Shown: positions 13,397 through 16,851, counted from the stretch's first letter. The stretch: 64,000 nt of DNA from Nannocystis bainbridge (GCF_028368995.1 NZ_JAQNDL010000001.1:3840001-3904000), one strand, 5' to 3'. The notes: generated from the letters alone by a model not told the origin. Translations and numbers: made by a program.

Positions 13397-14050
13397 ATGC
13401 GGGCCGACGATCCGCCGGGAGACTTCGCGCGGGTCCGCGAGCTGCTTCAGGGCGCGCCCTTCACCTCGCGGCCGCGATCCGTCGTCACGACGATGCTGCG
13501 CGTCCTGTTCACCGGCGACACCGACACCGAGATCAGCGCGCGCGGGTTCACCGTCAGGTTCATCGGCGGCCGCACCCTGTCGTACGTCACCGAGCCGGCA
13601 GCGGCCACGCTGCACGTGCTGCTGAGCCGCGCGAACATCTGTCCTCGAGGACAGCCGCTCGCGTTCCGCCTCGCCGAGGAGGACGGCCACGCGCTGGTGG
13701 GCTTCGCCGACGCCGCGCGCTGGGTGTGGATCTTCCCTGGCGACGATCTGGTGCTGGTGTCGTTGCGCCGGCCGACATGCCCCGGACCGCCGCCCGCCGA
13801 TCTCCCGCCGCTGCCGCTGCCGACGCCGGTCAAGAAGCTCTACGCCCACCTGGCGCTGCCGCTGCCGTGCCCGTGTTGCGGTCGCTCTGCGACCGTCTAT
13901 CGCGCGGCCCCGGATGCGTGGATCTGCGGCGACCCGCGTTGCGGGCGATCGTTCAGCCCGCCGCAGCGGACCCGCGCGCTCGCGGAGCTGCGCGAGGACG
14001 CTGGCGTCGTCGTGCGCGAGTCGAGCGCCCGCCCGAAGATCTACCGCTGA
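13397..14050 (+). CDS. Hypothetical protein with C-terminal zinc-ribbon (CPCC...CGDPRC)
   Basis: 217-aa ORF 1 nt after the upstream stop; two Cys pairs near the C-terminus. Confidence 0.6.
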   Translation: MRADDPPGDFARVRELLQGAPFTSRPRSVVTTMLRVLFTGDTDTEISARGFTVRFIGGRTLSYVTEPAAATLHVLLSRANICPRGQPLAFRLAEEDGHALVGFADAARWVWIFPGDDLVLVSLRRPTCPGPPPADLPPLPLPTPVKKLYAHLALPLPCPCCGRSATVYRAAPDAWICGDPRCGRSFSPPQRTRALAELREDAGVVVRESSARPKIYR

Positions 14051-14060
14051 CGAAAAAGGC

Positions 14061-14190
14061 GGGTCGCGACGAAGTTCGAAGTGACATTTTACCACGCGCT
14101 CTACCAGGCTGAGCCACCGCCCCGAAGGGCGGGCTGGATTCGAACCAGCGACCTCGTGGTCCCTTGTAGTCACTTCGGCATTCGCGACCC
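14061..14190 (-). ncRNA. Y RNA (YrlA-like) unit 7, with permuted tRNA-like module
   Basis: Outer stem GGGTCGCGA/TCGCGACCC; CGAATG motif; T-arm GCTGG-TTCGAAT-CCAGC; acceptor-like stem CCGCCC-TTCG-GGGCGG; D-arm GCTC-AGCCTGGTA-GAGC; followed by GCCTTTTT. Confidence 0.88.
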
Positions 14191-14200
14191 TGAAGAAGGC

Positions 14201-14267
14201 AGCTGCGACGAGAAATCGGCGAGACGTGCGTCGTGAAAGGATGTAGTCCCGCCAAGCATTCGCAGCC
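14201..14267 (-). ncRNA. Short Y RNA unit 6 (no tRNA-like module)
   Basis: GGCTGCGAATGC...GGCGGGACTACA...GTCTCGCC...TCGCAGCT: same outer stems and motifs as the long units, closed by a short loop. Confidence 0.78.
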
Positions 14268-14277
14268 AAAGATAGGT

Positions 14278-14410
14278 GGACCTCGACGAAAGGTACGGAG
14301 ACATTCGTGCTCTACCGGGCTGAGCTACCGCCCCGTGGAGATGGAGCGGGTCGGATTCGAACCGACGACCTCGACATTAAAAATGTAGTCCCCGCGGGCA
14401 TTCGAGGCCC
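14278..14410 (-). ncRNA. Y RNA (YrlA-like) unit 5
   Basis: T-arm GTCGG-TTCGAAT-CCGAC; stem CCGCTCC-(ATCTCCAC)-GGGGCGG; D-arm GCTC-AGCCCGGTA-GAGC; CGAATGC and GACTACA motifs. Confidence 0.88.
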
Positions 14411-14437
14411 AAAACGGTATGTGTGCACAGAGAAGGT

Positions 14438-14572
14438 GGACCCCGACGAGGGTCGAAGAGACGTTTACGCGCTCTGCCGCTGAGCTACCGCCCCGTACGA
14501 GTGGAGCGGGCTGGATTCGAACCAGCGACCTCGATCCCTGGAAGATGTAGTCTCTCCGGGCATTCGGAGTCC
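14438..14572 (-). ncRNA. Y RNA (YrlA-like) unit 4
   Basis: T-arm GCTGG-TTCGAAT-CCAGC; stem CCGCTCC-(ACTCGTAC)-GGGGCGG; D-arm GCTC-AGCGGCA-GAGC. Confidence 0.88.
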
Positions 14573-14596
14573 AAAAGCCGGGTGTGAAGAAAAGGT

Positions 14597-14732
14597 GGGC
14601 CTCGACGAGGGATCGAAGAGACGAACTGCGGTCCGCTCTACCGCTGAGCTACCGCTCCATGGGTTCGGAGCGGGCCGGATTCGAACCGACGACCGTACCG
14701 TTAAAATGTAGTCCCCTCGGCATTCGGGGCCC
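14597..14732 (-). ncRNA. Y RNA (YrlA-like) unit 3
   Basis: T-arm GTCGG-TTCGAAT-CCGGC; stem CCGCTCC-(GAACCCAT)-GGAGCGG; D-arm GCTC-AGCGGTA-GAGC. Confidence 0.88.
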
Positions 14733-14755
14733 GAAATCGTCGGGCGTAAAAAGGT

Positions 14756-14881
14756 GGGCTTCGACCAGGTGTTGAAGAGACATACGGGCGTTCTACCCCT
14801 GAACCACCGACCCTCGCGGGCCGGGCCGGACTCGAACCGGCGTCCCCCTTTGGAATGTAGTCCCTTCGGCATTCGAAGCCC
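14756..14881 (-). ncRNA. Y RNA (YrlA-like) unit 2
   Basis: Outer stem GGGCTTCGA/TCGAAGCCC; T-arm GCCGG-TTCGAGT-CCGGC; stem CCGGCCC-GCGA-GGGTCGG; D-arm GTTC-AGGGGTA-GAAC. Confidence 0.86.
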
Positions 14882-14890
14882 GAAGAAGGC

Positions 14891-14955
14891 GGCTGCGACG
14901 AGGGTGGGCGAGACATCGTCAAACCAAGATGTAGTCCCGCCCTGCATTCGCAGCC
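14891..14955 (-). ncRNA. Short Y RNA unit 1 (no tRNA-like module)
   Basis: GGCTGCGA/TCGCAGCC outer stem, GGGCGGGAC/GTCTCGCCC inner stem, CGAATG motif; begins 14 nt after the rsr stop codon. Confidence 0.78.
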
Positions 14956-14969
14956 AAGGTTTCAGGCGT

Positions 14970-16523
14970 TCACAGCGTGACCGCCTCGATCGCGCGGACC
15001 CAGTGCTCGCCCGCGAGGCCGCCGCGCGCGAACGCGGCGATGAGTGAGAAGACGTCGTCCGAGAAGCCGCCGACGTTGAGGATGTCCTTTCGGTCAGGCG
15101 CCTGCGTGGTCGCCCCCGGCTGGATGTCGATGCAGACCAGCTTCGCCGCGGGGTTGCGGCCCTTGTAGGCCCGCCACTCCTCCATCACCTGGGTCCCGCG
15201 CCGGTACGTGTTGCGGGTGTCGATCCACGACTCGTTGTCCGACACGAAGATCACCAGGTCGCCCTTGGCCTTGCGGCGGTTCAGCTCCTGCAGGGGCGCC
15301 GCGCAGTTGGTCCCGCCGGACGGGAGCTTCGCCAGGCGCTGCGCGTTGGTGAGGACGCTGTCGTGGCCGTCGATCTTGCACGGCACGACCTTGTCGTGGA
15401 ACGGGATCACCTCGGTGTCACGGTTCTTGCGGAGGAACGCCGCCGCGACCAGGGCCGCCGCGTCGATGCACCGCACCGCCGAGGTCGCCCCCTTGCGGAA
15501 CCCCGTGGCCGGGGAGTGCATCGATCCCGAGACGTCGAGCAGGACATAGATCTGGCCCTCGACCTCGGGCACGTTGGTGAGCGCCGCCTCCATGGCGTCG
15601 TGGAGCGCGTCCCGGATCTTCTTCGGGATGGCGTCGTCGGCCTGCTTGTAGGCCATGAGCAGCTGGTACGGGAACACCCGCGCCTTCCGCACCTCGTCGG
15701 GCGACGCCAGCTTCTTGGCGAGCGCCTTGGTGAGCGTCGCGTCGTCGAAGACGCCGTGACGCAGGAAGGTGTTGAGGTTCATGCGCAGCATCTGCCAGCC
15801 GGCCCGGGCGGCGATGGCCCGCCACGCGCTCTCGCGCAGCGGCGTCCCGGTGAGCAGCTGGAACGGCACGTCCGGGACCTCGTCGGTGCGGCCGGCCTTG
15901 AAGTCCTCGAAGGCGCGCACGCACGCGGGCAGGGCCGCGGCGTCGTGCGGGCGGCCGAGCAGGTAGCCGTAGAGGGCCCGGCGGCCGTCGTTGGCCGGCT
16001 TGGGGTGGACCATCCGGACCACGTCCGTCAGCGACGGGTCGTTGCCGACCGAGTCACCGAGCACCTGCGCGTCGCTGCGGCGGTCGAGCCACCGCTGCAC
16101 CAGCCGCTTGGGCCGCGTCCCGAACGAACGCCGACCCGTCGCCCCCGACCGCACGATCTGCACGAAGTTGCGCAGCATCTTGCCGTTGTCGCACACCCGC
16201 CCGAACACCTTGTCGAGCATCAACCCGTTGCGGCTCGCCAGCTCCGCCAGGAGCAGCGCCGGCATGTCCTTCATGTGGCTGTGCTGCCGGGTGTACACGG
16301 CCGTCTTGGCGACGAACTCGGCGTCGACCTTGGCGACCAGCGCCTGCACCGCCTCGAGCTGCTTCTGACCGGACGCGTAGTAGGTGTTGTTGAGGCAACC
16401 GGTCGCGGCGTACTGAGCCAGCGCGTGCTTGTCGCTCAGGGCGTACGCCCGACCCCCTGCCTCGTTCACCGCGTCAGCGACGGGAGCGGCCTTGCGGGTG
16501 GTGAAGATCGAGAGGTTGACCAT
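14970..16523 (-). CDS. rsr: Ro60/TROVE-domain RNA-binding protein with C-terminal vWA domain
   Basis: NEAGGRAY, MKDMP, MLRMNLNTFLRHGVF, VFPYQLL TROVE motifs; vWA MIDAS LDVSGSM, GGT, FVSDNE; AAGGAG RBS before ATG at 16523. Confidence 0.95.
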   Translation of the reverse strand: MVNLSIFTTRKAAPVADAVNEAGGRAYALSDKHALAQYAATGCLNNTYYASGQKQLEAVQALVAKVDAEFVAKTAVYTRQHSHMKDMPALLLAELASRNGLMLDKVFGRVCDNGKMLRNFVQIVRSGATGRRSFGTRPKRLVQRWLDRRSDAQVLGDSVGNDPSLTDVVRMVHPKPANDGRRALYGYLLGRPHDAAALPACVRAFEDFKAGRTDEVPDVPFQLLTGTPLRESAWRAIAARAGWQMLRMNLNTFLRHGVFDDATLTKALAKKLASPDEVRKARVFPYQLLMAYKQADDAIPKKIRDALHDAMEAALTNVPEVEGQIYVLLDVSGSMHSPATGFRKGATSAVRCIDAAALVAAAFLRKNRDTEVIPFHDKVVPCKIDGHDSVLTNAQRLAKLPSGGTNCAAPLQELNRRKAKGDLVIFVSDNESWIDTRNTYRRGTQVMEEWRAYKGRNPAAKLVCIDIQPGATTQAPDRKDILNVGGFSDDVFSLIAAFARGGLAGEHWVRAIEAVTL

Positions 16524-16851
16524 GACGGGCTCCTTGTCAGACCCCTTGAGCAGGCATCGGACCGTGACCATGATGGCTTGCTGGATCTGCGTCATTCCGC
16601 GGAGTTGAATGGCTTTGCCCGGGGAAGAATGCAGCTTTGTTCTTATCCTTTGCTATCTACCGGTAGACGACCGTCGCGCGCGCGGATGAACACATGTCTC
16701 TTGGGTCACCTCGCATCGCACGCACGTCGACGCCTGCAGACCGCGGAGCACATGTCCTCCGAGACAGCCGGTCGCGCGTTGGGTTCTCGGATGTCCCTCG
16801 GGACAGGCCTGCGTCGCGCTACGCCTGACCTTCGAGACAGCTCGCGGAGCG

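Follow-up and report, generated by a model that had tools for sequence, protein, structure and literature searches.

Alanine-type acceptor stems in two units of a seven-unit Y RNA array beside rsr in Nannocystis bainbridge

Bacterial Y RNAs carry a tRNA-like module whose role has been open since 2014, when aminoacylation was judged unlikely to be general (PMC4201824). The question is raised anew by a locus in a 64,000-nucleotide stretch of the genome of Nannocystis bainbridge (GCF_028368995.1, NZ_JAQNDL010000001.1:3840001-3904000; hereafter the window, in whose coordinates all positions are given), where rsr, the gene of a Ro60 protein, is followed by an array of seven Y RNA genes. Could some of these RNAs be charged with an amino acid? 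Two of the units possess the full acceptor part of the alanine identity set, and they belong to a widespread subclass that makes the aminoacylation question directly testable. The locus also has its own internal controls, in that the alanine-type units (4 and 5), a near-miss (unit 3), closed forms (units 2 and 7) and payload-free forms (units 1 and 6) all share one Rsr and probably one promoter, and the same array is present in named cultured Nannocystis strains. A charged Y RNA, if true, would link Ro60 to the translation apparatus.

The rsr gene (14970..16523, minus strand) encodes a 517-aa protein and is present in a single copy in the genome. It starts with an ATG behind an AAGGAG ribosome site, and the proteins of relatives align from the same Met. 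Both Pfam domains scored over their cut-offs (vWA_Ro60, PF25045, E 2e-22; TROVE, PF05731, E 1e-8), and the structure of Deinococcus radiodurans Rsr (2NVO) matched residues 19-502 (E 1e-22), which gives the Ro60 architecture of a HEAT ring TROVE domain plus a vWA domain. The closest named proteins, 90-93% identical, are those of Nannocystis punicea, N. pusilla, N. exedens and Nannocystis sp. RBIL2 (L062-L065).

An initial annotation, made from the sequence alone, had proposed that rsr is followed by seven co-oriented Y-RNA-like units starting 14 nt after its stop codon, and this layout was borne out. All seven units are on the minus strand, as rsr is; the first begins 14 nt past the stop, the last ends at 14062, and every one lies at most 0.92 kb downstream of rsr. 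When units are delimited by their 8-bp outer stems, as in all unit coordinates here, the gaps between them are, in order, 10, 25, 26, 29, 11 and 11 nt, in line with the 9-27-nt spacers described earlier. Each unit opens with CGAATGC-N6/7-GACTACA, its two ends pair with each other, and a pyrimidine run comes after it; the proposed N7 spacer within the motif holds in four units only, the other three having N6. The 11.0 Mb genome has 7 occurrences of this motif, all of them in the array. Searches by motif, Rfam and our own model revealed no further units elsewhere in the genome, and the weaker matches fell at or beside tRNA genes, except for one weak Rfam match on contig C2.

Units 1 (14891..14955) and 6 (14201..14267), which are 77% identical, are short hairpins recognised by the motif and by weak Rfam matches, and unit 1, which our own model R1 scored at 50.8 bits, consists of the Rsr-binding stem only. 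Rfam YrlB (RF02565) gave the two 27.4 and 18.4 bits (E 0.03 and 8.8), below its 97-bit cut-off, and they are filed here as YrlB-like. They share with YrlB and D. radiodurans Yrn2 a long-stem hairpin, the Rsr motif and a pyrimidine-rich loop, and differ from YrlB in their length of 65-67 nt and their scores of 18-27 bits. The other five, units 2 (14757..14880), 3 (14598..14731), 4 (14439..14571), 5 (14279..14409) and 7 (14062..14189), matched Rfam YrlA (RF02553) at full length with scores of, from highest to lowest, 74.5, 65.5, 59.6, 58.2 and 50.9 bits (E 3e-16 to 2e-9), of which only that of unit 7 (74.5) exceeds the 69-bit gathering score, the other four lying at 51-66 bits. All units lie on the rsr strand and within the 4 kb of rsr that is used to define YrlA, and of the GNCGAAN0-1G consensus the CGAAUG core with paired ends is present in all seven, while only units 1, 6 and 7 have the leading G. 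In the five long units the order is T arm, acceptor stem, D arm. The initial annotation was therefore right about a permuted tRNA-like module without an anticodon loop; its loop-closed acceptor stem probably fits units 2 and 7 only, the former with a 7-bp acceptor closed by a GCGA tetraloop and G3-C70, the latter with a 6-bp acceptor closed by UUCG. The acceptor stem of unit 3, also of 7 bp, has an 8-nt loop, A3-U70 and G73 and is not of the alanine type. A U-run after unit 7 may end the transcript.

The fold itself appears to be under selection, as had been proposed. Folding z-scores were -4.2, -3.7 and -3.9 for units 1, 6 and 7 and -1.2 to -1.9 for units 2-5, and folding of the whole array recovered units 1, 2, 5, 6 and 7 and mis-paired units 3 and 4. 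Across 62 homologous long units, 98.6% of cells were paired, and 20 of the 32 pairs showed two-sided changes; none of 500 shuffles scored as high, and slid controls were 39-48% paired. Because these rows are related and were picked for acceptor stems starting with GG, and the structure was drawn from the same sequences, the covariation supports the fold without amounting to a formal test. Together with the Salmonella rsr-yrlBA-rtcBA system and its YrlA (RF02553; Chen 2014, PMC4201824; Wang 2018, bioRxiv 312249), these features place the locus almost certainly in the Rsr/YrlA family. Shared with Salmonella are the same-strand rsr neighbour, the GNCGAAUG motif, the paired ends, the order of T arm, acceptor-like stem and D arm, the short hairpin partners, and the linkage to sigma54/RtcR and rtcB, which here is seen in relatives. 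Where Salmonella has one or two RNAs, the window has five YrlA plus two short ones, and its rtcBA is unlinked; moreover, Salmonella YrlA has a closed 6-bp stem, whereas the 7-bp acceptors of units 4 and 5 are of the alanine type.

Two other identities were considered and rejected. A cluster of tRNA genes or pseudogenes does not fit, since no canonical cloverleaf with an anticodon loop is present and the single Rfam tRNA match stretches across units 2 and 3 and includes an insert of 81 nt. ARAGORN called no tRNA in the window, contrary to the expectation that standard annotation would report pseudo-tRNAs. Matches to tmRNA models were of 12-27 bits, under the cut-offs, and the real tmRNA of the host is on contig C2. 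As to tmRNA itself, it keeps a G·U at pair 3 for alanyl-tRNA synthetase (AlaRS), and its permuted two-piece form has been proposed to be matured by RNase P (PMC3985003). Like the two-piece form, the units are permuted, with acceptor strands joined by a variable loop, a G·U at pair 3 (in units 4 and 5) and no anticodon, and weak Rfam tmRNA matches lie over their stems; unlike it, they have no tag frame or pseudoknots, they have a full D arm and an Rsr-binding stem, and the host has its own one-piece tmRNA. As separate observations, the acceptor stem of unit 2 (14813-14807 and 14824-14818) is identical to that of a host tRNA-Asn (G000:C1:1430604-1430676), which may reflect chance or gene conversion, and the host carries 23 mostly divergent tRNA genes within 2.6 kb (C2:2556665-2559233), with smaller Leu, Ser and Cys clusters elsewhere.

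The case for charging comes from units 4 and 5. In tRNA numbering both read G1-C72, G2-C71, G3·U70, G4-C69 and A73, in a 7-bp stem with an 8-nt open loop. Position 70, A73, G1 (the predicted RNase P site) and G3 are at 14505, 14502, 14494 and 14492 in unit 4; in unit 5, position 70, A73, G1 and G3 are at 14345, 14342, 14334 and 14332. The bacterial alanine identity set consists of A73, G2-C71, G3·U70 and G4-C69, plus G20 (PMC9976931). In the 30 of 103 host tRNA calls that could be parsed by pattern, G3·U70 was found in the five tRNA-Ala calls only.

We then compared acceptor stems across 173 parsed rsr loci, limited to Rsr proteins of at least 52% identity and made up of related sequences, after 11 duplicate loci had been removed from the stem and locus counts. 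These loci yielded 218 YrlA modules, which reduce to 197 distinct stems; of these stems, 158 have at least six of seven pairs. Among the 158, a G·U occurred at pair 3 in 66 cases, against 7, 4, 11, 6, 0 and 9 at pairs 1, 2, 4, 5, 6 and 7. When stems were chosen by G1-C72, G2-C71 and A73 alone, 53 of 61 had G3·U70, with pairs 4-7 in 18 combinations, and the proportion was 30 of 37 when the host family was left out. G3·U70 was coupled to A73 (53 of 62; other pair-3 types, 8 of 21), and of the alanine-type stems 39 of 53 ended at 7 bp, versus 34 of 105 others. The loops of alanine-type stems range from 6 to 40 nt; variable loops on stems that usually stop at 7 bp are as expected for a spacer that is removed. 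Alanine-type stems were found in five phyla, namely in the host family, in Acidobacteriota, Planctomycetota and Verrucomicrobiota, and in one gammaproteobacterial bin. Their outer pairs covary, and double changes have exchanged pairs 6 and 7 for others, with G3·U70 retained.

These patterns suggested that units 4 and 5 are cut by RNase P, CCA-tailed and alanylated, a prediction that has to be weighed against another. The five YrlA RNAs might remain uncut or uncharged and serve as ordinary tethers or gates between Rsr and PNPase or another effector, with G3·U70 and A73 kept for another reader or as a relic, changing slowly, of an ancestral tRNA-Ala. We regard this alternative as possible but doubtful. 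It accords with Salmonella YrlA and Deinococcus Yrn1, which are uncut and found with Rsr and PNPase (PMC4201824), and it draws on several of the observations that weigh against charging. G20 of the D loop is missing from both units, which have C20 (unit 4) and U20 (unit 5). Mapped on the Rsr tree, pair 3 has 6 changes, much like pairs 4-7 (6, 5, 7 and 8); since these counts are alike, pair 3 is not more constrained than its neighbours, and only the persistence of the wobble stands out. Another G·U is conserved in the Rsr-binding stem (49 of 62), so a conserved wobble need not mean recognition by AlaRS. CCA is encoded in just 6 of 53 alanine-type stems, and neither unit 4 nor unit 5 encodes it; a free CCA end would take cleavage, trimming and CCA addition. 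The alanine type is also absent from many loci: 45 of 95 complete loci with a YrlA have it, as does 1 of 15 units from viral and myxobacterial loci added later, and there was none among the Hahella or Labrys units inspected. What the tether explanation leaves unexplained is that the wobble, one transition away from two stronger pairs, has persisted in five phyla alongside double changes at pairs 6 and 7, and that it is coupled to A73 and to the 7-bp stop of the stem.

A precedent for the first processing steps comes from Mycobacterium smegmatis, whose YrlA has a 7-bp stem and is cleaved by RNase P and acquires CCA in vivo (PMC4201824), the very processing predicted here for units 4 and 5. Unlike theirs, its stem reads A1-U72, G2-C71, G3-C70 and is without the alanine set. 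The authors of that study considered charging of Y RNAs possible and unlikely to be general (PMC4201824). The Gloeocapsa YrlA in their alignment has G3·U70 and A73 but a 2:71 mismatch, on which the parts examined make no comment (PMC4201824). A literature search that included a 2025 phage Ro60 paper (PMC12135203, consulted in part) and a 2026 tRNA-mimic preprint, and that did not cover several topical reviews, turned up no account of a Y RNA that is charged or of the alanine type. As far as this search goes, the system is a known one in which long arrays are not rare, and what appears to be new is the alanine-type subclass.

The explanation that we favour is the following chain of events. The rsr array would likely be transcribed as a single stress-induced RNA, driven by sigma54 and RtcR after tRNA damage by analogy with Salmonella, where the operon is induced by RtcR sensing tRNA fragments (PMC7790460). 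The pyrimidine-rich spacers would be processing sites, and Rsr, known to bind Y RNAs via the 5' motif (PMC4201824; Wang 2018 preprint), would capture the CGAAUGC stem shared by all seven units; both steps are modelled on known systems. RNase P would then open units 4 and 5, a CCA end would be added and alanine attached; for these steps the host encodes RNase P RNA, AlaRS and two genes of the CCA/poly(A) polymerase family. In this way a single Rsr ring would take up RNAs that are charged, uncharged or free of payload. The least certain step is the role of the charged RNA, which would most likely shield its own 3' end and give Rsr access to EF-Tu and ribosomes. Taken as a whole, from one stress-induced transcript to alanylation, we consider the chain evenly balanced between holding and failing. 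A bolder extension, in which the alanine-charged Y RNAs form a second tmRNA-like rescue system and the other units are uncharged competitors or adaptors tuning the same ring, seems unlikely. No RqcH/NFACT gene was detected in the host genome, which is 90% complete, and a rescue role accordingly has room, without thereby gaining support.

The initial annotation had offered another function, that a diversified repertoire of RNAs may provide adaptors or decoys. Here the array would soak up nucleases or toxins that attack tRNA, the varied acceptor ends widening the range of enzymes caught. Hughes et al. have indeed proposed that YrlA competitively inhibits an anticodon nuclease, and tRNA fragments induce the Salmonella operon (PMC7790460); acceptor ends do vary among the units, and close relatives have between 6 and 9 copies. 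However, the units are without an anticodon loop, Salmonella YrlA is not a substrate of that nuclease (PMC7790460), and the units are position-specific and conserved between species, not fast-evolving. A Pfam scan of 11 neighbouring proteins, which was not a dedicated search for defence systems, found no defence or toxin family save a TerB domain 7 kb away. The decoy function thus found no support here, and we hold it to be improbable.

How the array arose bears on whether all of its copies matter. Units beside rsr were counted in relatives, as the initial annotation had recommended: five close genomes with the same gene neighbourhood have 6, 7, 8, 9 and 9 units, compared with 7 in the window, whereas three more distant genomes of the genus have three (two short, one YrlA) and three other family members have two or three. 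Four sequencing runs in which the locus has a low share, flagged as probably DNA, contain related array-bearing DNA. In a FastTree phylogeny of the long units of six genomes, copies clustered by array position, with supports of 0.996, 0.95, 0.93 and 1.0 for positions 2, 3, 4 and last. The array therefore expanded before these species split and was not homogenised; its copies are, on this phylogeny, maintained paralogues, and the diversified repertoire claimed at the outset is upheld. Extra units in three genomes resemble a repeat of a YrlA-plus-short pair. The lone YrlA of most sister lineages is of the alanine type, and this type is therefore probably ancestral in the host lineage. Tandem duplication in one Nannocystis lineage would then have kept the ancestral alanine form in two copies and also given uncharged variants, the tetraloop-closed units 2 and 7 and the G73 unit 3.

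Extra copies could instead be near-neutral tandem duplicates that raise RNA dosage, with one or two units functional, an explanation we rate as very improbable. The varying copy number (6, 7, 7, 8, 9, 9) and the 2-3 units of the sister lineages would agree with it, as would signs of unit turnover: in one unit (L223:3627-3740) the Rsr stem is missing its 3' strand and the unit continues into the one after it, and the second unit of L225 has a degenerate T loop. Near-neutral copies would not be expected to form supported groups by position in six genomes, and the long units, only 67-79% identical to one another within the genome, have nonetheless kept their pairing.

The size of the array, which had been thought exceptional, proved less so. 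Up to four YrlA per locus are listed in Table S1 of Chen 2014 (Hahella chejuensis, Neisseria elongata, Chondromyces apiculatus), and five small RNAs lie beside D. radiodurans rsr (PMC4201824). Our motif parser, which found at least five units in 12 of 112 loci, undercounts distant loci, and 52 + 37 loci were therefore recounted by our own covariance model. Of 52 other rsr loci, 12 had at least five full-length units and 4 had six, the window scoring six in the same way; a Labrys locus gave eight units by this model and a Hahella locus seven, to which Rfam adds one short unit. By these counts, seven units are in the upper tail, are only moderately unusual and arose several times. Seven viral contigs (L265, L266, L261, L271, L278, L279 and L281) each carry Rsr with several Y-like units, and a search of plasmids gave mainly Rhizobium.

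The region upstream of rsr bears on the proposed stress induction. A degenerate sigma54-like promoter (GG-N10-GC) may lie at 16549..16565 (minus strand), its -12 part kept in six close genomes and its -24 GG in four. Of 23 family loci, 13 have upstream of rsr a closer match to the sigma54 consensus, with 3 mismatches allowed. Tandem GATA words at 16642..16657 (minus strand), kept in close relatives, are a weak candidate for an RtcR enhancer site; similar GATA/TATC words precede host rtcB, and about 2% of random windows reach 2 GATA words per 200 nt. The host genome encodes RtcR plus four RtcB-family genes (G000:C1:3113129, C1:3404689, C1:2905312 and C2:2478898), one of which sits in an rtcR-rtcB-rtcA-like cluster with a good sigma54 site, and among 167 related loci rtcB adjoins rsr in 64 and rtcR in 68 (about 40%). 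Two findings argue against such control in the window: its sigma54-like site is a poor promoter match that fails the 3-mismatch pattern, and its rsr is unlinked from rtcR-rtcB-rtcA, which is about 740 kb away. Direct local alignment of the regions upstream of rsr and rtcB gave no meaningful similarity, and a sigma70 promoter scan returned 0 sites, with one terminator-like match at chance level.

Two further features flank the locus. Upstream of rsr, 16690-16840 contains several imperfect copies of a short TGTC..GAGACA/GGACA palindrome, also seen in relatives and probably a dispersed intergenic repeat. On the plus strand, a 217-aa open reading frame at 13397-14050 converges on the end of the array; it has two CxxC-like motifs and no Pfam match, and it is kept (47-67%) beside the array in five close genomes.

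The survey of relatives also revealed other payloads on Y RNA handles. In 15 units, recognised by pattern, the Rsr-binding handle stands in place of the D loop (L076, L078, L081 at +555 from rsr, L099, L102, L108, L109, L130, L136, L141, L145, L148, L149, L194 and L202). Their order is D-arm 3' half, anticodon-like hairpin, T arm, closed acceptor and D-arm 5' half, a permutation that differs from that of YrlA. Five other units (L080, L213, L216, L218 and L221) have the handle in place of the acceptor stem, followed by D arm, anticodon-like arm and T arm, an order that matches the one described for Deinococcus Yrn1, here on a YrlA-type handle. About 50 more units carry non-tRNA payloads.

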